The translations under genes and the position numbers were made by a program. A stretch of 64,000 bases of DNA from contig NC_086108.1 in the NCBI RefSeq assembly GCF_963921235.1, positions 14,322,001 to 14,386,000 on the forward strand, read 5' to 3'. Within the stretch, counting starts at the first letter, position 1. Every line of letters begins with the position of its first letter. Shown here in pieces: positions 27,833 through 63,600 of the stretch. The notes beneath the pieces were generated by a model. The model worked only from the letters and a program-made list of their open reading frames with translations, had not been told where the DNA came from and ran no database searches. Origin of the DNA: Mobula hypostoma. Its lineage: Eukaryota.

Positions 27833-29195
27833 AGTGGCATGCAAAAGTTTGGGCACCCCTGGTCAAAATTTCTGTTACTGTTAATAGTTAAGTGAGTAGA
27901 AGATGAGCTGATCTCCAAAAGTCATAAGGTTAAAGACAAAACATTCTTTTCAACATTTTAAGCAAGATTAGTGTATTATTTTGGTTTTGTACAATTTTAG
28001 AGTGAAAAAAAGGAAAGCAGCCCCATGCAAAAGTTTGGGCCAAGAGATTTGAGCTCTTTTACCAAGTTCTCAGACCTTAATTAGTTTGTTAGGGCTATGG
28101 CTTGTTCACAGTCATCATTAGGAAAGGCCAGGTGATGCAAATTTCAGAGCTTTATAAATATCCTGACTCCTCAAACTTGTCCCAACAATCAGCAGCCATG
28201 GGCTCCTCTAAGCAGCTGCCTAGCTCTCTGAAAATTAAAATAAATGATGCCCACAAAGCAGGAGAAGGCTATAAGAAAATAGCAGAGCATTTTCAGGTAG
28301 CCATTTCCTCAGTTCGTAATGTAATTAAGAAATGGCAGTTAACAGGAACAGTGGAGGCCAAGTTGAGATCTGGAAGACCAAAAAAACTTTCCAAGAGAAA
28401 GGCAAATCAAAATTCCCGTTGTACTGCAAAAGACCTTCAGCGACAACTGCACAAATATGACCTTCATGGAAGAGTCATCAGAAGAAAACCTTTCCTGCGT
28501 CCTCACCACAAAATTCAGCGTCAGAAATTTGCGAAGGAACATCTAAACAAGTCTGATGCATTTTGAAAACAAGTCCTGTGGACTGATGAAGTTAAAATAG
28601 AACTTTTTGGCCGCAATGAGCAAAAGTATGTTTGGAGAAAAAAGGGTGCAGGATTTCATGAAAAAAACACCTCTCCAACAGTTAAGCACGGGGGTGGTTC
28701 GATCATGCTTTGGGCTTGTGTTGCAGCCAGTGGCACGGGGAACATTTCACTGGTAGAGGGAAGAATGAATTTAATTAAATACCAGCAAATTCTGGAAGCA
28801 AACATCTCACTGTCTGTAAAAAAAAAAGCTGAAGATGAAAAGAGGATGGCTTCTACAACAGGATAATGATCCTAAACACACCTCAAAATCCACAATGGAC
28901 TACCTCAAGAGGCGCAAGCTGAAGGTTTTGCCATGGCTCTCACAGTCCCCTGACCTAAACATCATCGAAAATCTGTGGATAGACCTCAAAAGAGCAGTGC
29001 ATGCAAGACGGCCCAAGAATCTCACAGAACTAGAAGCCTTTTGCTAGGAAGAATGGGCAAAAATCCCCCAAACAAGAATTGTAAAAGATGGAAAAAAAAG
29101 TCATCTTGCTTAAAATATTAATGAAATGTGTCATCTTTAACTTTATGCCTTTTGAAAATCAGGTCATCTATTACTCACTTAGCTAGTCTCAGTAA
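27832..29195 (+). mobile_element. Tc1-like (IR/DR) transposon with broken transposase
   Basis: [21 protein letters not shown] and [11 protein letters not shown] motifs; CATGCAAAAGTTTGGGC repeated at 27838 and 28024; truncated right IR at 29100-29195. Confidence 0.93.
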
Positions 29196-29503
29196 AGACC
29201 ACACCTAACTGCATAGACAAACAACCAATGTGCCAATGTCATACAACACAGCACATAATAATGATGTTGTCTTTTGCAAATGGGTGTTTGTCCGTCTTGT
29301 TGAGTGCAATTTTTCACTGATGTTGGTAATCATGGTTTTTCCATGACCATGATTGTTCTTGGCAAATTTTTTCTACAGAAATGGTTTGCCATTGCCTTCT
29401 TCTGGGAATTGCCTTTACAAGACAGGTGACCCCAGCCATTATCATTATTCTTCAGAGTCTGTCTGCCTGGCGTCAGTGGTCGCATAACCAGGGCTTGTGA
29501 TAT

Positions 29504-30866
29504 CCCCTCCCCTTTCTAGATCTTTCTGTCTCTATCTCTGGAGACAGCTTATCTACTGATGTCTACTATAAGCCTACTGACTGTCACAGCTATCTGGACG
29601 ATTCCTCTTCTCACCCTGTCTCTTGCAAAAATGCCATCCCCTTCTCGCAATTCGTCCATCTCTGCCGCATCTGCTCTCAGGGTGAGGCTTTTCATTCCAG
29701 GACGAGGGAGATGTCCTCCTTGTTTATAGAAAGGGACTTCCCTTCCTCCACCATCAACTGTGCTGTCAAATGCATCTCCCCCATTTCACGCACATCTGCT
29801 CTCACTCCATCCTCCCGCCACCCCACTAGGAATAGGGTTCCCCTGGTCCTCACCTACCACCCCACCAGCCTCCGGGTCCAACATATTATTCTTCGTAACT
29901 TCTGCCACCTCCAACGGGATCCCACCACTAAGCACATCTTTCCCTCCCCACCTCTCTCTGCTCTCCGCAAGGATCGCTCCCTACGTGACTCCCTTGTCCA
30001 TTCGTCCCCCCCATCCCTCCCCACTGATCTCCCTTCAGGCACTTATCTCCCTCCTGGCACTTATCCTTGTAAGTGGAACAAGTGCTACACATGCCCTTAC
30101 ACTTCCTCCCTTACCACCATCCAGGGTCCCAGACAGTCCTTCCAGGTGAGGCAACACTTCACCTGTGAGTCGGCTGGGGTGATAAACTGCGTCCGGTGCT
30201 CCCGATGTGGCCTTCTATATATTGGCAAGACCCAACGCAGACTGGGAAATCATTTTGCTGAACACCTACTCTCTGTCTGCCAGAGAAAGCAGGATCTCCC
30301 AGTGGCCGCACATTTTAATTCCACATCCCATTCCCATTCTGACGTGTCTATCCACGGCCTCCTCTACTGTAAAGATGAAGCCACACTCAGGTTGGAGGAA
30401 CAACACCTTATATTCCGTCTGGGTAGCCTCCAACCTGATGGCATGAACATTGACTTATCTAACTTCTGCTAATGCCCCACCTCCCCCTCGTACCCCATCC
30501 ATTATTTATATACACATATTCTTTTTCTCACTCTCCTTTTTCTCCCTCTGTCCCTCTGACTATACCCCTTGCCCATCCTCTGGGTTTCCCCCCCACCCCT
30601 TTTCCTTCACCCTGGGCCTCTTGTCCCATGATCCTCTCATATCCCTTTCGCCAATCACCTGTCCAGCTCTTGGCTCCATCCCTCCCCCTCCTGTCTTCTC
30701 CTATCATTTTGAATCTCCCCCTCCCCCTCCCACTTTTAAATGTCCTACTAGCTCTTCCTTCAGTTAGGCCTGACGAAGGGTCTCGACCCGAAACGTCGAC
30801 TGTACCTCTTCCTAGAAATGCTGCCTGGCCTGCTGCGTTCACCAGCAACTTTGATGTGTGTTGCTT
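29504..30866 (+). mobile_element. Penelope-like element (RT C-terminus, GIY-YIG endonuclease, pLTR)
   Basis: FLDLSVS...YYKPTD...IPFSQF RT motifs; ORF 29711-30472 with GVINCVRCSRCGLLYIGKT; hammerhead motif at 30766-30801; GCTTGTGATAT repeated at 29493 and 30863. Confidence 0.92.
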
Positions 30867-46223: not shown

Positions 46224-46656
46224 TGTTGTTCGCAGGTTCAATGAGTGGAGACAGAAGAGACTCACTACCGGTAAGTAGGTTAACTATTTATTTACAAGAC
46301 ACAACAGACACTAAACATTAAAGCTGAACTCGGTTACAGATACTGAATGCCCGAAGTAGCAGGACAAAACGGACACTAAACGTACATACACACTGCGAAT
46401 ACTTATTTAAAGTGTGTGCCCAGGCCCTCTCCACTGCAGCAAACCAACCACTGTCTACCGTTTCAGCAGCACCCTCATTTACTTGGTCCATGGTGAACCG
46501 AGAGGAATAGAAACAACATGGTTACCACACACGAGATTTAAACCCTATTGGTGCTGTGAAATCATCAGCTAACTGGAAGCTAGTGGGAAGGGCTGAAGTG
46601 CTCCTTACATGGACCAATCCCCACTTTCAATGAACAGCTAAATTAAAGTCACAACA
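46224..46656 (-). mobile_element. 3' LTR of the same ERV
   Basis: TGTTG...CAACA termini. The reverse complement shares blocks with 51332-51801 (GTAAATAAATAGTTAAC, TTTTGTCCTGCTACTTCG, CCCACTAGCTTCCA) and abuts env. Confidence 0.8.
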
Positions 46657-47640
46657 TGCTCAGCCTGTAGGCTAATATAACCCCCATAGACACCCCACTA
46701 TACTACACATGAAACATAACACAATACTACCCAGAATTATCAGTCCACCAGTTACTACGCAGTGTTTTACGGTAACCTACCAAAGGACCACTGCCTTTCC
46801 CCCAGGGTACAGTAGTTACAGAGCTAGCCCTCCACAAGTGACTTATTTACTGACTGCTGGATACAATCAGCTATGTGTGTAATGTTCACCGTCTTTGTCA
46901 GGGTTGTAGATGCAGCCCTTCTGACCAGTCACAGCACAGGTGCCACCTTTCTCTGCGAGCAGGTGGTCCAAGGCCACCTGGTTTTGTAAGACCACCATCC
47001 AAAACAACCGTCTTCTCAGTGCATCCATCACAGAGGCCATGCATATCAGTTCCCAGGACAGCCTGGCCCAGGCACAACATATCTAGTTTAGAGTCCTGGA
47101 AGTGCCCACCTTCATGTCACCATTCGGTGTTGACGCAGTCATCCCAGAATACTGGTCCTGTTCATACTCACTGTGCCCAACTGATTGGTTGGCCCTGTGG
47201 TCATCATACCCCTTGCACTAGCACTCCTTCCCCTTCCCTGTTGGCAGAGCGTCATTCTCCAAATCGGGACCTTGGGATTAGACAATTAGACAGCCCTTAA
47301 TTCACTTACTCCACCAGGGTTACTGAAACCTCAGTTATTTAGGGCTATTCCCTGTGGGGCGAGGTTGACTGAAATGGACTGCTTCTTCCTGGTTTCCCCC
47401 AAGACAGAATGGCAAAGCTGGGGAAGCTGGACAAGTTTCTCCAGCTGTTCTGTTCTTCGTCATTAAAGGAGATCAGTACTAGCCTTCTGCAGCGTGTGAT
47501 AGTACCTTCATGCAGACTTAACAGTCTGAAGTTTAAGTGTGGTTTGTATTCTCATACGCCATCCATAGGAATGTTGATAGGATCTCCCTCTGACCACCAT
47601 CGTTACCACTCCTGTAAGCATCCATCACTTTGCCTTTCAC
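46657..47640 (-). pseudogene. env: Retroviral env remnant with gamma-type TM subunit
   Basis: The minus strand at 46897-47007 reads VLQNQVALDHLLAEKGGTCAVTGQKGCIYNPD (immunosuppressive domain plus degenerate CX6CC). It is followed by a hydrophobic anchor VVTGGLIILGSIVLCFMCSI (~46700-46760). Confidence 0.85.
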
Positions 47641-47643
47641 AAG

Positions 47644-48715
47644 ATCACAAGACAAAGGAGCAGAAGTAGGCCATTCGGCCCATCGAGTCTGCTCCGCCAC
47701 TCCCCCATGAGCTAAACTATTCTCCCATCTAGTTCCAATTTCCGGCTTTTTCCTCATATCCCTTGATACACTGACTAATTAGATACCTATCAACCTCCTC
47801 CTTAAACACCCTTAGTGATCGGACCTCCACAGCTGTATGTGTTAACGAATTCCATAAATCCACGACCCTCTGGCTAAAAAAATTTCTCCTCATCTCTGTT
47901 TTAAATTGGTACCCTCTAATTCTAAGACTGTGGCCTCTTGTCCTGGACTCACCCACCAAAGGAAACAGCCTTTCCACATCTACTCTGTCCAACCCTTTCA
48001 ACATTCGAAATGTTTCTATGAGATCCCCTCTCATTCTTCTATACTCTAATGAATACAGTCCAAGAGCCAACAAACGCTCCTCATATGTTAGCCTCTGCAT
48101 TCCAGGAATCATCCTTGTAAATCTTCTCTGAACTCTCTCGAACATCAGAACATCCCTTCTAAGATAAGGGGCCCAAAACTGCACACAGTATTCCAGATGA
48201 GATCTCACCAGTGCCCCATAGAGCCACATCAACACCTCCTTACTCTTATATGCTATTCTTCTTGAAATGAATGCCAACATAGCATTCGCTTTCCTTACTG
48301 CCGATCCAACCTGGTGGTTAACCTTTAGGGTTTCCTGCACGAGGACCCCCAAGTCCATTTGCACTTCCGATTTTTGAATTTTCTCCCCATTTAAATAACA
48401 ATCTGCCTGATTATTTCTTCTTTCAAAATGTACAACAATATATTTCTCAACATTGTATCTCATCTGCCATTTCTTTGCCCACTCTCCTAAACTGACCAAG
48501 TCTCTCTGCAACCTTTCCGTTTCTTCAACACTTCCTGCTCCTCCACCTATCTTGGTGTCATCCGCAAATTTAGCCACAAGACCATTTAATCCATAATCTA
48601 AATCATCGATATACATTGTAAAAAGAAGCAGCCCCAACACCGACCCCTGCGAACACCACTAGTAACCGACAACCAAACAGAATAGGATCCCTTTATTCCC
48701 ATCCTTTGATTTCTG
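47644..48715 (-). mobile_element. 5'-truncated CR1-type LINE inserted inside the ERV
   Basis: 303-aa ORF 47729-48640 with KFADDTK, HLEYCVQFWAP and RMRGDLIE motifs; CR1 3' tail. Confidence 0.9.
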
Positions 48716-48719
48716 CATT

Positions 48720-49110
48720 TCTGTAATGCAGGAAGACACAAACTCACTCCCTCCTGGTTAGCTGCAGGGTATTTTGACAGACTATCCCCTGTTGCCCCAG
48801 TAACACCACCCATCCTGTATTCCCCGGTCTCTGCGTGCTACAACCTACTTGAGCCCTGGTGGCCCCCCCCACCCCCACCCCCGGGCTGCTGGCCGGGAGT
48901 TCACTTTGTCTGCTGTCTGTAACAGCACACTCCTCACCCCTGAAGGGTGTGGGTGGGAGTCAATTACTTAATCAGCTGTTTCTGCAGCCTGTCCTTCGCT
49001 TGGTCAGCCCTTCGGCTTCTGTGTGGTTGGGGATGTGGAGCAGCCACAGAGTGCCAAACATATTATCCATGTCCATGTTTCCCTTCCTGCAGACCCTTTG
49101 CAAGTAACTG
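48720..49110 (-). pseudogene. pol: ERV integrase fragment (no protease or RT seen)
   Basis: GTLWLLHIPNHTEAEGLTKRRTG resembles the ERV-L integrase segment GIHWSYHVPHHPEAAGLIERWNG. Confidence 0.65.
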
Positions 49111-49240
49111 AAAAACATAGAACAAACAATTAATTTCCACAGTGGAAAACTTAAGCACATTTACCAAAGAACAAAGGGACTTAATTCATTCACTCAGCCA
49201 TGAAGTGTAGCCCTCTTAAAATATAAGAGCTCCTGCAAAT

Positions 49241-49620
49241 TCATTTCAGTGAAGGATAAAGGGAATCCTGTGGAGGACAGAAGGCGCCCTTATTGGTAGA
49301 GGGCTTGAAGAATGACCCTTCCCACTTAGTGGCCTCCTGACCTCTCTTCTCTGGGCAGTGTTCCCTCCAGATGGCACAGAGGGTGGGAGTGGGAACACAA
49401 TTTACTTGCTCCTTTGGGAACCTGGCTCTGAGCAATGCCAGATACAGTTCTTCACGAGTCATGCGAGGCCCTCCATTCCAAGGCAATCGACTACGGGGAC
49501 CCTCCCCCATCTACTCTAATTCCTCCAATAATCAGATGGCAGCATCTGTCTATCGCTTGTCCCAAGAAGGGCAGCACCATTCCCTTTAGATCGTGTGCTG
49601 CCACTTTAACTAAATAAGGG
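49241..49620 (-). pseudogene. gag: ERV-L-like gag, C-terminal part
   Basis: YLVKVAAHDLKGMVLPFLG and MTREELYLALLRARFPKEQVNCVPTPTLCAIWRE resemble ERV-L FVRGAPASLKSSV and LTRxELWHWLINHGVPRSEIDRKPTAFLLxLY. Confidence 0.7.
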
Positions 49621-49785
49621 TGGTGCTGTAGGTTGTGCACAACGTTTACAGTACAGGCGACCCGGGTTCAATTCCTGTCACTGATGGTTGGTAGATAAAT
49701 TGGTCATTGTCAACTGTCCTGTGATAAGGCTTGGATTAAAATGAGGGATTGCTGGGCAGCGTGACTCGAAATGGTTGAAGTTAAC
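49618..49785 (+). mobile_element. Decayed tRNA-derived SINE at the inversion breakpoint
   Basis: B-box-like GGGTTCAATTCC with a SINE-like body (TAAATTGGTCATTG) similar to 19020-19260. Confidence 0.5.
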
Positions 49786-49952
49786 CTATGATCCTCTGGT
49801 GGAGAAGTCACTGTTATGATAGATCAGTAGCAAGAGCCAAGAAGGTATGGCCAGGGGAGGCGCAGGAACGCTTACAGGACTACTTTGAGTCAGAAGGCTG
49901 GAGTCAATGGCTCTCACACGGCCTTAGATCGCCTGAACGATACAAATATTTA

Positions 49953-50550
49953 CATAGAAAACATAGAAACATAGAAAATAGGTGCAGGAGTAGGCTATTC
50001 GGCCCTTCGAGCCTGCACCGCCATTCGGTATGATCATGGCTGATCATTCAACTCAGAACCCTGCACCAGCCTTCCCTCCATACCCCCTGATCCCTTTAGC
50101 CACAAGGGCCATATCTAACTCCCTCTTAAGTATAGCCAATGAACTGGCCTCAACTGTTTCCTGTGGCAGAGAATTCCACAGATTCACCACTCTCTGTGTG
50201 AAGAAGTTTTTCCTAATCTTGGTCCTAAAAGGCTTCCCCTTTATCCTCAAACTGTAACCCCTCGTTCTGGACTTCCCCAACATCGGGAACAATCTTCCTG
50301 CATCTAGCCTGTCCAATCCCTTTGGGATTTTATATGTTTCAATTAGATCCCCCCTCAATCTTCTAAATTCCAACGAGTATAAGCCTAGTTCATCCAGTCT
50401 TTCATCATATGAAAGTCCTGCCATCCCAGGAATCAATCTGGTGAACCTTCTTTGAACTCCCTCTATGGCAAGGATGTCTTTCCTCAGAGGACCAAAACTG
50501 CACACAATACTCCAGGTGTGGTCTCACCAAGCCCTCGTACAACTGCAGTA
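49953..50550 (-). mobile_element. CR1-type LINE 3' fragment
   Basis: ORF 50053-50505 with RRLRGDLIE and FFTQRVV motifs; (TTTCTATG)n-type tail. Confidence 0.9.
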
Positions 50551-50559
50551 ATACTGGAG

Positions 50560-51331
50560 TGTCTATGTTACCATATACTACCTTGAGATTAATTTTTGTG
50601 CGGCATTTACAGGAAGAATAATTTACAGGAACAATATAATTTAGGAAAACTATACATAAACAAAGACTGACAAACAAAAAATATAAAAGGACAAACTATG
50701 CAAATAAAACATAATACTGGCGACAGGAGTTGTAATACTGAGAACGTAAGTTGTAAAGGGTCCCTGAAAGTGGGAGTGTAGGCTGTAGAGTTGTGGTCAA
50801 TAAAGTTATCCATGCCAGGTCAGGAGCCTGATGATCGTAAGGTAATAACTGTTCCTGAGCCTGGTGTTGTGGGACCTAAAGCTCCTGTACCTCCTGCCCA
50901 ATGGCAGTAGCGAGAAGTGAAGATAGACTTGATGGTGGAGATTTTTAAAGATGGACGCTGCTTTCTTGTGGCAGCACTCCATATAAGTGTATTCTGTGGT
51001 GAAGAGGGCTTTGCCCGTGATGGACTGGGCAGTGGTACCAAGCTGTGATGCAACCAGTCAGGATACTGTCCACTGTGTATTTATAGAAATATATCAAAGT
51101 TTTTGGTGACATTCCAAAGTTTATGCAAACTTCCAAGAAAACTGAAGTGTAGCCGCGCCTTCTTTGCATGTACTGGTCCCAGAACAGATTCTTTGATATG
51201 TTAATGCCAAGGAATTTAAGCTACTGACCCTCTCGTAGACTTCCAGCTTCTTTCTCCTTTAGTCGATTACTAACCCATTGGTTTTGCTGATGCTGATTGA
51301 GAGATTGTTGCATATTTTTAGTCTCCCTCCT
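50560..51331 (-). mobile_element. Rex1/Babar-like LINE 3' part, right half of the ERV target, inverted
   Basis: FGMSPKTLIYFYKYTVDSILTGCITAWY. The reverse complement starts AGGAGGGAGACTAAAAAT, continuing the sequence seen uninterrupted at 62140-62180. Confidence 0.75.
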
Positions 51332-51801
51332 TGTTACAATATGTGTCTTACCTTACCTGCTCATCGAAAACCGCTGTCCCTTGGGAGGTGAGGACTGGTC
51401 TGTGTCAGGAGCATTGCCTCCCCTCCCACTAGCTTCCATTTAGCTCACAGTGTCAGTAGGGTTTATATCTAGTGTGCAGTAACCAAGCGGGCTCCTTTCT
51501 ACTCGAGTTGCCGAGGACCAGGTAGACGAGGGTGCCATGGAAACACTGGATAGTGGAGGTGTGCTGCAGTGCAGATGGCCCAGGCGTACACTCTAAATAA
51601 GTATTTGCCACTGTGTTTACATTTAGTGTCTGTTTTGTCCTGCTACTTCGTGCACACAGCTTAGGTAAGTATCTGCAACCAAGTTTAGCTTGAAACGTTT
51701 AGTGTCTATCTTGTCCTGTAAATAAATAGTTAACTTACTTACTGGTAGTAAGTTTCTTCTGTCCCCACCCACCCAGCCGACAAGCGTGGTTTCTCACAAC
51801 A
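51332..51801 (+). mobile_element. 5' LTR of a class III-like endogenous retrovirus
   Basis: TGTT...AACA termini, TATA-like TTTATAT (51462), AATAAA (51721) and a PBS immediately downstream. Homologous in reverse complement to 46224-46656. Confidence 0.85.
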
Positions 51802-51803
51802 AT

Positions 51804-51824
51804 TCGCGCTGCAAGCAGGGTTCG
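51804..51824 (+). promoter_or_regulatory. Primer binding site complementary to the tRNA-Ser 3' end
   Basis: TCGCGCTGCAAGCAGGGTTCG lies 2 nt after the LTR end and matches TGGCGCAGCGAGCAGGGTTCG (complement of the recalled vertebrate tRNA-Ser(UGA) 3' end plus CCA) at 18/21 positions. Confidence 0.75.
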
Positions 51825-51899
51825 GTGTTTGAACAGAACGTAAGTATCTTTGGAAGGAAAACTTAGAGAGAGAACCCCTGGTAAGAGGAGAGCTGAGTT

Positions 51900-52905
51900 C
51901 TTGGATGGACCAATGATGGTGGGGGATTTGGGAGTCACCTACCCATTGGCAGACTATAGGATGCCCATAGATGGTCTAAGGGGTGAAAATCGAACACCAC
52001 ATCATGTCTGTACATAATAAGCCAGGGTTCCCCAAGAGGCAGGGGAGCCGGAGGGATGCCTTCTCACTGCTGTACTGTGGCAGCAGCAGGAGATAATCTC
52101 ACAAAAGGAGAAAAAAGTAGATAGTTTGAAGAAGGCAATGGAATCAATAAACCAGCAATGTGTGACCACAGGAGAGGTCCCTGGGCAGTGCAGACCCGGG
52201 CCAGGGAGTTAGAAGGTAAGAGCCTAGAGGTGGCCTGTTGGCTAGTGAAGGTGCAACAGTTAGAGGGTATTCGAAGGTCTAATTTGCATCTGGACCTCAT
52301 TAAGGTGCAAGAGCTGATGTTGCCAGGAGCAAAACCCAACACGTGGATGAAGGACGGGAACATTTAGTTAGATGGTAAGGATGGGAAGAGAGTCTTGGGG
52401 ATCCTCCTCTGAGTGAGTGCCCTTCCCCATTTGCATTACAGGCCAGATCGGTCACCACACAGTCCCAGACCAGGTAGGGGGCTGCCAGATTTTAGTCCCT
52501 CCAGCTTCTATGGAACAGGATGAGGAAGAGCAGCAGACTGGGAGAGAAGGATCTGGGGAGGATAACACCGTGGGTCTCACTGAGATGACTACCATCTGAG
52601 TGTTCTCCGCTAAGGAACTGGGAAAGCTGGGAGACAGGTATGGGCAGAAGTTAGGGAAGCCTGTGCCCTGCTGGGCTGCACGGAGTGTTGGAATGGGCCT
52701 ATCCCAGGGGGCCTGTCGGCCCACCGGACGATCAACAATGCCGAGAGTGCCACCCGCTTCCCATGGGGTTGAGGAATCTCTAGGAGGTGGAGTGATAGTA
52801 GTGGTTATGGTCAGGCATCCCTCACTGTTCGAATGGGATTTGCAGCTCTGGGTGGAGTGGAGCCCAGTGGAGGAAGGGAACAGGCCCTTTAGCAGTGGGG
52901 TCTAG
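51900..52905 (+). pseudogene. gag: ERV-L-like gag, N-terminal part, decayed
   Basis: LIKVQELMLPGAKPNTWMKDGNI* resembles ERV-L KVRALIGKEWDPxTWxGDVW, and FSAKELGKLGDRYGQK resembles YTPKELLEFSNLYKQK. Contains stops and frameshifts. Confidence 0.7.
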
Positions 52906-52911
52906 TCACAA

Positions 52912-54050
52912 GAGATCAGAATCAGGTTTAATATTACTGGCATATGGTGTGAAATTTGTTAACTTTGCAGCAGTAGTACAATGCAATACATGATAAATAT
53001 AGAAAAAACAGAATTACAATTAGTATCTGTATATGTATATTAAATAGTTAAATTAAGTAGTGCAAAAATAGAAATAAAGAAGTAGTGAGCTGTTTTCATG
53101 GGTTCAATGTCCATTCAGAAATCAGATGGCAGAGGGGAAGAAGCTGTTCCTGAATTTCTGAGTGTGTGCCTTCAGACTCCTGTACCTCCTTCCTGCTGGT
53201 AACGATGAGAATTGGGCATGTACTGGGTGATGGGGGTCCTTAATGATGCACGCCGCCTTCTTGAGGCACCACTCCTTGTAGATGTCTTGGATACTATGGA
53301 GGTTAGTGCCCATGATGGAGCTGACTAATTCTACAACTTTCTGCAACTTACCTTGGTCCTGTGCAGTTGCCCCACCCCCTACCCCCATACCAGACGGTGA
53401 TGCAGTCAGTAAGGATGTTCTCCACAGTACTTTTGTAGATGTTTTGGAGTGTTTCAGGTGACATACAAAATCTCTTCAAGCTCTCATTGAAGTATAAATG
53501 CTGTCTAGCTGCATCAATATGTTGCATCCAGGTTACGTCCTCAGAGATATTGACACCCAGGAACTTGAAATCGCTCAGTCTCTCCACTTCTAATCCCTCT
53601 GTGAGGATTGGTTTCTGTTCCCTTGACTTACTCTTTCTTAAGTCCACAACCAGGTGTTTGGTCTTGCTGTTGTTGAGTGCAAGTTTGTTGCTACGACACC
53701 ACTCAATTGACTGGTATATCTCACTCCTTTGCGCCCTCTCATTTCATTTTAAATTCTGCCAACAATAGTGTATCATCAGCAAATTTATCGCTGGCAATTG
53801 AGCTATGCCTATCCTCACAGACATGGGAATGGAGGGAGTAGAGCAGTGGGATAAGCAGTGGGAGTTGTGCCAGTGTTGATTATCAACAAGGTGGAGATGT
53901 TATTTTGAATCAGCACAGATGGTGGTCTTCCAGTTAGGAATTCAAGGAACCAGTTGCAGAGGTATAGAGGCCAAGGTTCTGTAGCTTTTTGATCAGGACT
54001 GTAAGAATGATGGCGGTAAACCCTGAGCTATAGTCAATAAGCAGCATCCG
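52912..54050 (-). mobile_element. Rex1/Babar-like LINE 3' part
   Basis: FKFLGVNISED, IIKDPHHP and RYRSLKAHTQKFRNSFFP motifs; (ATTCTG)n tail. Confidence 0.85.
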
Positions 54051-57689: not shown

Positions 57690-60600
57690 ACACATTTCAA
57701 ATATAGTCAAGGACTTGTTTGAAGAAATCTCTGCCTAATTATCATGAGTTTATAACCTGCAGCACCAGAGGCTCCAACACACTTGACCACTTCTATACTA
57801 TGATTAGGAGGGCCTACTGTTCGTGCCTAGATCGCGTTTCAGAAATCTGAACACTTGGCTGTCCTCTTACCTGCGTACAGGCAGAGGCTAAAGGGCAAGG
57901 CTTCAGAGATAAGAACAACAAAGAGGAGGCATGGGAGCAGAGGAGCAGTTATGGGATTACTTCAGGTCAATGGACTGGGCCATATCAAGGACTCATGAGA
58001 GGATCTGAATGAATACAACACAGTGGTCATTAACCTTATAGCAGCAGTTGTAGACAACTGTGTTCCCACAAAATTATTCAGGGTCTTCCCCAACCCAAAG
58101 CCCTGGATGAACCATGAGATCCACAACCTGCTGAGAGCCAGATCAGTTGCATTCAGGTCTGGCATCCAAGTAAGATACAAGAAGTCCTGGTATGATCTCT
58201 GGAAAGCCATCTCACCTGTGGTTCGGGACCAAACTTGAATCACTGAAGGATGACCGACAGCCGTGGCAGCAGTTGAATGATATCACCTCCTATAAAGTGA
58301 AACTAAGCAACATAGGTGACTACAAGGTTTCTCTCTCTGTTGAGCTCAATACCTTCTATGCTGGCTTTGACTGCAAAACAAGGAAGAACTTCACAAACTC
58401 CCACAGCCCGTGATGACTCTTGTGATTTCAGTCCCAGGCCGATGGGAGAGCATCCTTCAGGTGGGTGAACCCACAGAAAGCTTTCAACCCAAATGGGGTA
58501 CCTGGCCGATCACTAACGACCTGTGCTGATCAACTGGCTGTGATAACCTTAACCTCTCATTTTGGTCGTCTGAGGTACACACCTGCTTCGAGCAGGCTTT
58601 AGTTTCAGTGCCCATAAAAAGTATTCACCCTCCATGGAAGTTTTTGCTTTATCATTTTACAACATTGAATCACAGTGGATTTAATTTGGCTTTTTTGACG
58701 CTGATCAACAGAAAACGACTTTTGTGTTAAAGTGAAAACATCTCTACAAAATGATCAAAATTAATTATAAATATAAACACAAAATAATTGATTGCATAAT
58801 TATTCACCCCTTTAATATGACACACCAGATCATCACTGGTGCAGCCAGTTGGTTTTAGAAGTCACATAATTAGTTAAATGGACTGTGTGGCAATGAGAGG
58901 GAAGAGGTGGCTGCGTAGCTGTAGGCATCCGTTAGTCTCATGAGACCATGGATTTGCGCCTTGGAAGGATTCCAGGGCACAGGCCTGGGCAGGGTTGTAT
59001 GGAAGACCAGCAGTTGCCCATGCTGCAAGTCTCCCCTCTCCACGCCACCAATGTTGTCCAAGGGAAGGGCACTAGGACCCATACAGCTTGGCACCGGTGT
59101 CATCGCAGAGCAATGTGTGGTCAAGTGCCTTGCTCAAGGACACGCACGCTGCCTCAGCCAAGGCTCGAACTAGCGACCTTCAAATCACTAGATGAACGCT
59201 TTAACCACTTGGCCACATGCCAACACTGCATATCACAGTGGGGAAAAACACAGCAGGGCACGAGGTTGGCTAGCTGATATCCAAGACTCCAGCATCATTG
59301 GGCTGAACCTGATGTCTCACTGGGGGGCCCATGTGGATGTGCCGGGGGCAACACCCTATCTCAGCTGGTCCAACACCACATTAAAACTGGGGACACCTGC
59401 CCGATCTGCCTGCTGCCCCATCACCTGGCCCTTGGCAAACGCCAGGCAGCGGAGCAGTGGATCAGTACTGGGAGCGGCTGGCATCATCAAGCTCTCAGAC
59501 AGCCTGTGGGCAGCCCCGGGCAGTGTTGGTTAGGAAGCGAGATGGATTGTGGTGGTTCTGCATAGACTAACACCATTTCAGTGCCATGACGCAGAAGGAT
59601 TCCTACCCGCTGCCCCGAATTGAGCTGCTCTGGACTGTATCGTGGGTTTGACCTGGTTCAGCTCTCTCGATCTCCACAGTGGCTTCTGTCCCGGGAGGTC
59701 TGACCCAAGACCACTTTCACCATTGGTCAAGGGCTGTGGCACTTTTGGGTAAATGCCGTTTGGCCTGTGTAACGCCCCAGCCACATTCAAGAGACTGGTG
59801 GAGAGAGTGCTGGCTTACATTCTACGGAGTCGCTGTGTCATCTATTTGGACGATCTCCTGGTAAACACTGTCATTTCTAATGATGCTCTGCGGAACCTGG
59901 AAGAGGTCTTTGCTGCCGTCCGCCAGGCGAAACTCCGCCCTAACCCCACAAAATGCTGTCTGCTGCACCGGCAGACAAAGTTCCTGGGGCGCGTGGTGAG
60001 TGCGGAAGGAATGGCGATCGACCCTGAGAAGGTGGCAGTGGTCAAGGAATGGTCCACTCTGGCAATGCTTTGAGCTTTGCAGCATCCTGCCGCCTGTTTA
60101 TTAAGTACTTCACTGCTGTCGCCAGTTCCCTGCATCAGCTCACCAAAAGGGGAGACCCTTCACCTGGACTGCCACCTTCGACCAGCTCCAAACTGTGTCC
60201 ACCGAGGCCCCAGTGCCAGTGTATCCCAATCCAGCACACCTTTTCATTGTTGACGCAGAGGTCAGCAATGGGGGTATCGGCGCAGTGCTATATCAAACCA
60301 CTACGTTTTGTGGCCATGGATAACTTCACAAATTGGCCACAGGCATAAGGGTCCCGGACCAGAGTGCCACCACCACCACTGAGAGACTTGAAGAGGAATT
60401 CTTATGCCACTTCAGCATCCCTGAGGAACTCCAGTGCTACCAGGGTGCAACTTTGAGGCGCAGGTGTTTGGCAAGGGCTGTAGGCAGCTGGGAATCACCA
60501 AAATGTGGACCACCCCCTTCATCTGCAAAGTGATGGGCTGGTGGAATGATTTAACTGACCCTGGCTACACAGCTTACCATCCTTGTCAGCCAGCACCAGT

Positions 60601-63600
60601 GCAATTGGAATCACCACCTAGCCCTAGCATACCGGATAGCAGTTTAGGAGAAAACTAGGTGTACGCTGGCTGTGCTTGTGTTTGAGTGGGAACTGCACAT
60701 GCTGGTGGATAGGGTGTTTGTTTCCCTCCCCAGCCAGAGATTCCTGGGGGCGGGAGGGGGCGCCAGGTTGGATTACCTGCAGCACCTCAGAGGGCACCTG
60801 CGGGTTGTTCATGTTGTGGCTCAGCAGAACCAAAGTGCAGCCAGCTGCCGTCAAAAATAAGCTTATGATGACGACAGTCAGGGACAGGACTTTACTGTGG
60901 GGAACCGAGTATGGGTCTACTGCTCATACTTGAGCAGTATGAGCTGGAGTGTGGGCCATACCCAAGTATGGGTCTACTGCTCCACCTGGAAGAAGGCTCT
61001 GTCTCCCAAACTTGGAAGCTATTGGAAGGGGCCGGGAGAGGTGTTCAACCACATCTCCGATATAGTATACCAGGCGCGGCTACCTGCACAGCTTTCGGCA
61101 GTTGTGCTGCAGCAGGACCAGCTGCCATCGTATCGGCCCTTGGCAGCCAAGTTGAGGGAAGGGGGTGACACTCTGGCTACCCTGCCTCTTGCCTCATCAT
61201 ACAGTGCCTCCCCTGGGGGGTGGGGATACAGCCACCCCCGAGTGCCCCAGATGGCAGAGTCGACCATCACCGGGACTTAAGGTCTTTGTTGCGGACTCTG
61301 GGGTTGCTGGGATGGCTGACCCCTCAGGTGGGGGCATTGTGCCGCTCTGGGGCGGGGGGGTATGGTCGACAGATTGCCCCAGTATTCCTTGTGGCCAGCA
61401 CTAATTATTGTTCTTGTTTTAAAAGGCTTTCGTGGTGTGCGTGTTCAGTAGAATCATGATGAGATGCTCAAGTTCATTTATTTTAGCTCTGCTTATACCT
61501 TGCTCACTTGTGTGTTTGTGTGCCACCCTGAAATGTAGCCTGGGTGTGTAATAATCACCTCCCCCATCTGTATGTGACTGAGTTAGTTCTCACTGAGCTA
61601 TTGTGCTCTGACTGTTATTGTGCTTGTCACAACAAAAGTGGCTGTTGAGATAAACAAGCTTTTCTCGTCTGTCATCATGGACTGAATGCTTGCCACGGTA
61701 TGAACTCCTGCCTGAGATGCAACCTGAATTCACTCCAATTTGCCTACTGGCACAACAGGTCCACAGCAGATGCCATCTCATGGGCTCTTCACTCAACCCT
61801 GGAACATCTGGACAGCAAAGATGCATCCATCAGGACGATCTTTATCAAGTACAGTTTGGCATTCAATACTATCATCCCCTCAAAACTAATCAATGTTTCA
61901 AGACCTTGACCTCAATACCTCCTTGTGCAATTGGATCCTTGATTTCCTTGATCCCAGTCAGTTCTAATTGGCAACAACATCCCCTCCACGATCTCCATCT
62001 GCACAGGTGCACCACAAGGCTCTGTGCTTAGCCCCCTGCTCTACTTGCTTTGTACTTATGACAATGAGGCTAAGTACACTTCTACGCCATATTTAAGTTT
62101 GCTGATGACACCAGTGTTGCTGGCCAAGTGAAAGGAAGGTGGTGACGAATCAGCGTATAGGAGGAAGATTGAAAATCTGGCTGAGTGGTGCCACAACAGG
62201 ATCTCACTCAACATCAGTAAGACCATTTGACTTCAGGAGGAGAAAACCGAAGGTCCATGTTATCGTCCTCATCGGGGGATCAGAGGTGGAGAGGGTCAGC
62301 AACTTTAAATTCCTCTGTGTTATCATTTCAGAGCATCTGTCCTGAGCCCATTACAAAGAAAGTATTGCAAAGATTCAACATGACTTTAAAACTTTGACAA
62401 ACTTCTATAGATGCATGGTGGAGAATATATTGGTTGTATCATGGCCTTGTATGGAAATGCCAAAGCCCTTGAACTGAAAATCCTACAAAATGTAGTGGAT
62501 ACAGCCTTCTCCATCATGGAGCACATCTATACAGTGTGCTATTTCAGGAAAGCATCATCCATCTTCAGGGACACCCACCACCCAGGCCAAGTTTGAGTTC
62601 AAGTTCAGGTTTAATGCTCATTCAACCAGACATGAATACAGCCAAACAAAACAGTGTTACTCCAGGGCCAAGGTGCAAAACACAGTACTGATCATCACAT
62701 ACAGCACAAGCTTCAGTAAAATACAATCACACAAAAAATACTGTATAGTCCATTACTGTATGGACCCTGTCCATGAATTTTGTAGAAATCTAGTCAATCA
62801 GCTGAGCAAACATAGTGCGGGGGGGGGGGAGGGCGGGGTGCTGGGGCAGCACTGACTTCAGCTTAGACACAGCACCACACCGCCTCTGGTGGAGCGCACC
62901 ATCTCCAACGCCTCTCTCCTGGGCAGCTGTAAATAGATGACACCACAGCTTGAGACCTAGTTGTCACTATGACCAAGGCCACGCAGCTCCCCTGGTGTCC
63001 ACCAATAAAACAGTGAATCAGACTTGCAGCATTCCACATTGACTATGTCCAACAGGGTCTTGCAATTACAAGGAAAGTGACTAAGACGATTACTCGCTGT
63101 TAGACTGCACACCGCCTTCGTGCAGTGACTCCAGTGGTGCCTCTCTGACGCAGACAGCAGCTCCTTTGCCATCGAACAACTCACTGATTTGCGGTACTTT
63201 AATATCTTAATCTCCAGCAGGGTGTTGTGATCGTGAGAAAGTACGTTTAAAAAGGACAGTATCACCTTTGATTGGCTCCATAGAAGCTGCTACCGTCAAA
63301 CACGGCACCATCTCTCTTCTTGCTGCTGCCATTAGGAAGGTGGTACAGGAGCCTCAGGACCCACACCACCAGGTTCAGAACAGTTACTACTCCCCAACCA
63401 TCAGGCCCTTGAACCACAGGGGATAACTTCACTTACCCCACCATTGAAATGTTCCCACACCCTTGGACTTACTTTCAAGGACTCTTCATCTCATGTTCTT
63501 GATTTTTAATGCTTATTTATGTATTTTATTTTGTATTTGCACAGATTGTTGTCCTTTGCATAGGGGTGGTTTGCCCATCCTGTTGCGTTCGATCTTTCAT

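Follow-up and report, generated by a model that had tools for sequence, protein, structure and literature searches.

A putative class III, ERV-L/ERV-S-type endogenous retrovirus family in a ray, and a pol-less, probably partly inverted copy of it in Mobula hypostoma

Among described endogenous retroviruses (ERVs), XtERV-S of the frog Xenopus tropicalis (Yedavalli et al. 2021, PMC8278194) has a splice acceptor near the end of pol, and its authors predicted that its combination of genes could be common among ancient ERVs. In cartilaginous fish, ERVs of the elephant shark have been called SnRV-like and epsilon-like (PMC4422223), ERVs with a gamma-type env were reported from 6 species with a class III Pol called SnRV-related (bioRxiv 2021.11.23.469661), and 6 genomes of chondrichthyans were counted to hold 2,843 clade III reverse transcriptase (RT) loci (PMC11089739). 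Class III falls within the clade Huo, which infects every major vertebrate lineage (PMC6001957), and the accessible part of a 2016 review gives HERVS/L-like ERVs for tetrapods only (PMC4977317). Here, a 64,000-nucleotide stretch of the Mobula hypostoma genome (contig NC_086108.1, positions 14,322,001 to 14,386,000, forward strand), referred to as the window, was analysed for the retroviral element at 46224..52905. This element is very probably one old and dead class III provirus, a pol-less derivative that was later partly inverted.

An initial annotation of the window, made from the sequence alone, had considered this kind of layout to be best described in amniotes. This does not agree with the frog XtERV-S, which carries gag-pol of class III, a class I env and a primer-binding site (PBS) for tRNA-Ser (PMC8278194). 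Fish and shark terms had no match in 9 supplements of that paper, the accessible parts of PMC8672886, PMC9967133 and bioRxiv 2024.07.05.601823 held no chondrichthyan data, and no paper on an ERV-L/ERV-S-type family in rays was found in a search that left most subscription papers, Dfam and Repbase outside.

The paired long terminal repeats (LTRs) of the initial annotation are present as two related sequences, which are 78.9% identical over 412 columns (Kimura two-parameter distance, K2P, 0.253), but they are inverted and not direct repeats. The inverted alignment scored 439 against a shuffle maximum of 68, and a direct-repeat pair was rejected, as the same-orientation alignment scored 48, below its shuffle maximum of 63.5. 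The 5' LTR (51332..51801, TGTTAC...CACAACA, about 470 nt) is on the plus strand, together with a PBS for tRNA-Ser(CGA/TGA) at 51804..51821, matching at 16/18 positions, and the N-terminal two thirds of an ERV-L/Fv1-type gag (51885..52915). On the minus strand are the C-terminal part of gag from the capsid C-terminal region onward (49247..49616), an integrase (IN) remnant, an env remnant and the 3' LTR (46224..46656), which starts TGTTG and ends ACAACA on that strand.

The PBS is the only site on both strands of the 64 kb with at least 14 matches to the 3' end of host tRNA-Ser. When 8 of the 9 matches to its motif in the genome were fetched, all 8 were tRNA-Ser genes (5 CGA and 3 TGA). At least 14 of 18 positions were matched in 18 of 23 family copies, and all 18 in copy L109. 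The Ser type proposed initially is therefore the right one, and the complementarity to host tRNA genes shows that the virus primed its reverse transcription on host tRNA-Ser.

The gag remnants named in the initial annotation were recovered in tblastn searches with ray ERV gag proteins against a 7.5-kb subject. The N half, which carries stops and frame changes, matched proteins P0010 (E 3e-13) and P0068 (6e-10), and the C half matched the N-terminus of Hypanus protein P0002 (4e-10); the C half also matched P0001 (4.7e-7). The IN remnant (48722..49075, minus), made up of the core's C-terminal half together with the C-terminal end, was also found, but weakly (E 4e-5 to the IN of P0017, on the same small subject). 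Pfam gave no match on the gag and IN frames of the window, its matches there being limited to env (TLV_coat) and the RT of a LINE; in two other copies the family IN matched rve at E 1.5e-7 and 6e-7, just below the curated cut-off. Between gag and IN, RT was not found and the protease (PR)-RT-ribonuclease H (RH) region is lost. What remains there is part of a spacer (49044..49245, minus, no family match), which in one subset of copies takes the place of PR-RT-RH.

The env remnant (46670..47645, minus), also with stops and frame changes, matches Hypanus P0002 at E 6e-10 and 2e-7 and Pfam TLV_coat at E 1.6e-4 (21 bits, where the cut-off is 22.5). It consists of the start of the surface subunit (SU), further SU with an internal deletion, and a transmembrane subunit (TM) with a stretch like an immunosuppressive domain (ISD), a C-X6-G-C motif and a membrane anchor. 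The ISD-like stretch and the degenerate CX6CC are as the initial annotation had described them, and the CWxC position is interrupted by a stop codon. The start of env directly follows the end of the IN frame; at 48716..48745 (minus), the IN frame end is followed by a pyrimidine tract, an AG and the env start codon, and the tract with its AG is a putative env splice acceptor. The 3' fragment of a CR1-type long interspersed element (LINE; 47650..48715, minus, Pfam RVT_1 E 9.5e-6) is inserted directly after this start codon.

The strand split of the window copy, with the gag N half on plus and the gag C half, IN and env on minus, was compared with the order in relatives. In colinear relatives, LTR-PBS-gagN continues into gagC on the same strand, and the gap between the end of the window gagN match and the start of the gagC match is 46-75 nt in 9 out of 9 relatives. 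The gag halves of the window do not overlap, only about 50-70 nt of the relatives' gag is missing, and a single inversion restores the normal order of a provirus. As the relatives are colinear, we infer an inversion in the window copy, which, since the locus is rearranged, is not a plain LTR-to-LTR provirus. The intervening repeats (49617..51331, no strand assigned) are read as the original 5' flank brought in by this inversion. Next to the other gag half, the 3' end of an L2/Rex-type LINE (52916..54050, minus) coincides with the gag break, with loose contig ends at 52915, and this LINE may be inside the inverted block. Recombination between inverted LINEs was considered as the route and rejected, as no matching inverted pair was present at the breakpoints. 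Inverted internal segments were also observed in two family copies (L043:6170-7198 and L107:8310-8431).

Without any inversion, the same arrangement could have arisen if two members of the family had inserted independently next to each other and both had later been truncated, and some features of the locus do weigh against a single provirus. The two window LTRs are little closer to each other than unrelated family LTRs are (median 0.27-0.31), among 50 other LTRs there are at least 8 that resemble the left one more closely than the right LTR does, and the candidate target-site duplication (TSD) is only 3/5 (CTCCT vs CACCA). A pair diverged by 25%, about as unrelated copies are, an unconvincing TSD and a family present at many loci (295-591 first-look candidates per query) would all speak for two insertions. 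However, the two halves meet within 46-75 nt in gag coordinates without overlap, two copies less than 2 kb apart with complementary breaks would be improbable by chance, and internal inversions are known in L043 and L107, which together make two insertions an unlikely origin. Among 51 LTRs, none is closer to the right LTR than the left one. In other family copies, an exact 5-bp TSD was found in 1 of 14 (L057, ACAAT), and LTR pairs within 15 copies had K2P distances of 0.16-0.38, some on short alignments.

To describe the family, DNA searches were carried out in the genome that holds the window (3.48 Gb in 200 contigs) and returned 295 (env), 591 (LTR-gag) and 307 (gagC-IN) first-look candidates, the best 40 per query being scored and mostly 66-85% identical. 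The loci examined were L031-L070 (40, from window DNA queries), L079-L098 (20, from database gag) and L099-L118 (20, from the RT of L046). Copies with RT, the recovery of which the initial annotation had proposed, were obtained, and they keep gag-PR-RT-RH-IN-env. In copy L046, the stretch from gag to env still holds PR, RT, a portion of RH, and IN, L114 has the identical gag-pol-env order, and gagC, pol and the env 5' part occur together within 10 kb in 7 of 20 RT-selected loci. Of 21 copies, 2 have the DTG protease motif and 3 a YIDD-like motif. In its complete form, of roughly 6.5-7 kb, the family reads LTR (about 470 nt)-PBS(Ser)-gag-PR-RT-RH-IN-env-LTR and is without a dUTPase; it has the TG...CA LTR ends, tRNA PBS and gene order that mark an ERV. 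No long family open reading frame (ORF) survives in L031-L070. One copy carries a tandem array of about 3 kb inside gag (L065:5075-8475, with matches at distances that are multiples of about 36 nt), which is open in several frames.

The 5' part of env was found in 32 of the 40 loci L031-L070, 20 of which had been selected with env. In decayed copies, intact motifs were counted for CX6CC (10/24), CWxC (10/32), a furin site (5/27), the N-x-S/T glycan site at the stutter (7/24) and the strict ISD pattern (2/24), and their presence in a minority of copies is as would be expected with neutral decay. The TM of copy L050 matches syncytin-1 (E 1.6e-5). By these motifs and matches, the family env is classed as gamma-type. 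No dUTPase was detected across 90 loci and the window (best tblastn E 0.17). The HERV-S-like layout suggested in the initial annotation is therefore upheld by the Ser PBS and the gamma-type env, with no dUTPase.

A search with HMMER in 1.84 billion proteins using the gag C ORF of copy L061 gave 2 matches, a 521-aa gag without a name and a model from Hypanus sabinus in which the end of gag is fused to env. None of 510 candidates matched in a word-based protein search with the same ORF, and an Atlas search gave bacterial acetyltransferases below 0.9, which were judged to be noise. The relatives of the 521-aa gag are a lizard Fv1-like protein, newt proteins and a monitor-lizard Gag-Pol; stingray gag relatives are also named Fv1-like, and the window gag matches such proteins, although these names are automatic annotations. 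For RT, L046 scored 51 bits to foamy entries of PDB (a label that we partly assume), 32 to MLV, 29 to Ty3 and at most 22 to HIV, and a class I locus of this genome, run as a control, reversed the ranking (MLV 199 vs foamy 121). The same comparison for IN was flat, with all matches at 19-22 bits. A Gag_p30 search of the genome gave no match, as did its control, and an IMG/VR scan for a reference retroviral RT found none. The RT of L098, from a related family, retrieved 35 Pol sequences, whose hosts are rays, lungfish, teleosts, amphibians, reptiles and birds; a dUTPase is present in many of them. Decayed copies had mean RT identities of 38-48% to the Pol references collected in this and other searches vs 25-33% to class I.

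Trees were built with FastTree (61 of 65 rows; L102, L114, L089 and L043 were left out for low coverage) and with IQ-TREE on 28 chosen rows, including four class I loci of the same genome. In the IQ-TREE result, the family is a clade (97.8/100) with Hemitrygon protein P0010 plus L091 as its sister (97.7/100), nested in a batoid clade of moderate support (92.8/84), and the rows on this side, with ERV-L-type Pol of rays, amphibians, teleosts, reptiles and birds, are split from the four class I loci (99.9/100). These results support the placement of the family, via proxy references, as class III and of the ERV-L/ERV-S type, and the class III call with ERV-L-type gag and pol made in the initial annotation agrees with the PDB ranking and the split from class I. 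ERV-L proper is ruled out for the ray family, because env is present and dUTPase was not found, and Gypsy was set aside by the PDB score and env alone. A chondrichthyan host had also been proposed, and the nearest named relatives are indeed from Hypanus, Hemitrygon and Narcine, on the basis of ERV relatives and not host genes. The suggestion of a deep-branching lineage is neither shown nor excluded, because the root inside class III is weakly supported (14.6/51 and 85.4/62).

What counts against this placement is that the trees were made without named MuERV-L, HERV-L, HERV-S, XtERV-S, SnRV, foamy or Gypsy sequences, with a chicken cluster and dUTPase-bearing Pol as the proxies for named ERV-L references. 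The family could then instead be a SnRV-like or foamy-like class III branch of cartilaginous fish, and published chondrichthyan class III ERVs have been called SnRV-like or foamy-like (PMC4422223, PMC10699275, bioRxiv 2021.11.23.469661). The best PDB match of the RT is foamy, the Atlas cluster nearest to a Hemitrygon gag is a foamy Gag (0.87, a lead only), and neither SnRV nor foamy was available as a reference in the tree. Foamy would, however, be merely the nearest entry, because PDB is without an ERV-L RT, and the RT identities to Pol references (many dUTPase-bearing) exceed those to class I in the ranges given above. With gag relatives annotated as Fv1-like in a lizard and a stingray and a gamma-type env in addition, such a branch is a very improbable alternative to the ERV-L/ERV-S type.

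A second, younger class III family was observed in the same genome (L079, L080, L081, L084, L087, L090, L097 and L098), with gag ORFs of 384-471 aa and a different Ser-type PBS in L079 and L097, the anticodon type of which is presumed. Its env is apparently reduced to the start and the membrane anchor (L079, L098), and in the IQ-TREE result it groups with Hemitrygon and Narcine Pol. On small scaffolds, the segment coding for the RT YIDD is tandemly repeated (L081:5834-6583, L087:5809-6597 and L090:5900-6757), which could be either a real expansion or an assembly artefact. Class I-type ERVs are plentiful; for the MLV integrase C-terminal family, the best 150 of 1235 candidates were scored as matches.

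Many pol-less copies depart from and rejoin the complete form at similar positions. Among 20 loci selected with env only, 10 carry gagC and the env 5' part, with pol kept in 3 (one partial, one inverted) and absent in 7. Pol is replaced by a spacer of 400-540 nt in 13 of the 40 loci L031-L070; the window holds part of this spacer, and none of 23 pol-bearing loci has it. Since the set was partly selected with spacer-containing window DNA, 13/40 is not an estimate of frequency. The spacer gave 142 first-look candidates in the genome, and no source locus of higher identity was among the best 40 of these. The spacer could still be a captured host mRNA, although there was no Pfam match in 12 frames and no Rfam match; Rfam also gave no match on the whole 64-kb window. 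Against a common origin of the spacer copies stands the DNA tree of the family (34 of 45 rows kept), which is star-like, with a mean p of 0.24-0.27 within and between classes, and in which the spacer copies form no supported clade. As no clade was recovered, it is the shared spacer alone that supports such an origin. Because the same structure occurs at many loci, pol-less derivatives were probably mobilised in trans by complete copies.

The locus was also followed in the contigs of three species-labelled sequencing runs, referred to as organisms A, B and C, the best of them possibly from the source sample and so not independent; a further run, X19, gave repeat coverage only. Contigs of B and C cover the junction of the 3' LTR with its left flank and that of the 5' LTR with its flank. 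The insertion is common to the three organisms, because these contigs cover the LTR-flank junctions. The insertion and the gagN-LINE join are in contigs of B, at about 97.5% identity, and of C, at about 89-92%, and a same-organism contig spans the left break (49292-49674) with 0 differences. The inversion is probably common to the three organisms as well. What counts against the inverted provirus here is that the contigs of A, B and C extend only 25-29 nt beyond the gagN-LINE junction, those of B and C reaching 25-26 nt into the LINE, less than the 31-nt bridging rule, and that the distal inversion breakpoint was not located. That the inversion is an assembly error in the Mobula hypostoma genome, as high-copy repeats adjoining both breakpoints might suggest, is scarcely credible given the difference-free contig across the left break and the gagN-LINE join in three organisms, even if the best run could come from the source sample.

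For the history of the locus, a batoid class III virus would probably have expressed its gamma-type SU/TM env via the splice acceptor just before the env start. In one ancient burst, complete forms and forms lacking PR-RT-RH probably spread together, the latter using the enzymes of complete copies in trans, and one subset of derivatives would have carried the shared 400-540 nt spacer instead of pol. The window copy would be one such pol-less derivative. After integration, it would have decayed neutrally and received LINE and short interspersed element (SINE) insertions, and a block from 49616 to at least 52915, with the 5' LTR, PBS and gag, would have been inverted with the loss of about 50-70 nt of gag. 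Speculatively, the LINE whose 3' end adjoins the gag break may have been involved. There is no indication of a present-day or host function of the window copy, which is itself dead and ordinary. The divergence of its LTRs is about twice that between A and C. Absolute dating was rejected and no age is claimed, because a K2P of 0.253 corresponds to about 57 My with a mammalian rate (2.2e-9) vs an implausible 575 My with 2.2e-10, the shark rate assumed in PMC4422223; the accessible part of PMC10587355 gives a per-generation rate only.

About 3 kb of the 46224..52905 interval is later LINE and SINE sequence. Within the intervening repeats there are a tRNA-like SINE head (about 49620-49790), a CR1-type fragment (49963-50559, minus) and an L2/Rex-type fragment (about 50550-51234, minus); the CR1, SINE and L2/Rex labels used for the window are what we take these repeats to be. 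Elsewhere in the window, a Tc1/Sleeping Beauty-type transposase fragment is at 28093-28566 (plus), with Pfam PF25787 and PF01498 above cut-off. A 323-aa open frame at 29501-30472 (plus), without a Pfam match, is in a repeat that recurs within the window and presumably resembles a Penelope-like element. The GC content at 59000-62000 is 0.50-0.56, compared with about 0.44 elsewhere.

The family places an ERV-L/ERV-S-type retrovirus with a gamma-type env in rays, and it is a case of env-retaining non-autonomous ERVs. Orthologous insertions across ray species could become datable markers for this branch in cartilaginous fish. A much wider proposal is conceivable, although improbable when all of its parts are taken together: the batoid clade might be an old, host-codiverged ERV-L/ERV-S branch, with its layout (a Ser PBS, a gamma-type env with the stutter glycan and no dUTPase) ancestral and the dUTPase-bearing and env-less ERV-L derived, the group dating from early jawed vertebrates and the pol-less forms, which retain env and would have captured the spacer, being early MaLR-like parasites.

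The comparison of XtERV-S with the ray family was made by description, not by sequence. As general background, the PBS of ERV-S/HERV-S is of the Ser type and that of ERV-L of the Leu type. XtERV-S and the ray family share an ERV-L-type gag, the PR-RT-RH-IN order, a Ser PBS and TGT...ACA LTR ends, as well as a gamma-type env that has CWxC close to the start of SU, an ISD, CX6CC and a glycosylation site at the heptad stutter; in both, the env start is beside the pol end, and deleted, non-autonomous copies occur (PMC8278194). XtERV-S has 5-bp TSDs, of which the ray family showed one exact case in 14 copies. In contrast, XtERV-S is intact and recent, its LTRs measure 705 nt, its PBS is of the Ser(AGA/TGA) type and a dUTPase follows IN (PMC8278194), whereas the ray family is dead, has no detectable dUTPase, LTRs of about 470 nt and a Ser(CGA/TGA) PBS. 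ERV-S/HERV-S, also compared by description, resembles the ray family in its class III gag-pol with env and without dUTPase (Discussion of PMC8278194) and differs in host. The ERV-L (MuERV-L, HERV-L)/Fv1 group is similar in gag, which is homologous to RefSeq Fv1-like proteins, but has no env and has a dUTPase after IN (Table 2 of PMC8278194).

CmiERV lineage I and other ERVs of cartilaginous fish are also class III in chondrichthyans, but SnRV-like or foamy-like (PMC4422223, PMC10699275, PMC6001957, PMC11089739). The nearest named sequences are from Hypanus sabinus (XP_059826944.1), Hemitrygon akajei (XP_072911374.1 and XP_072891825.1) and Narcine bancroftii (XP_069782200.1), the Hypanus model being a gag C-terminus joined to an env of the same lineage. 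These ray RefSeq proteins are automatic gene models and not described ERV families. The ray family is probably not a new group, and it would extend to rays the ERV-L/ERV-S kind known from frogs, reptiles, birds and mammals.

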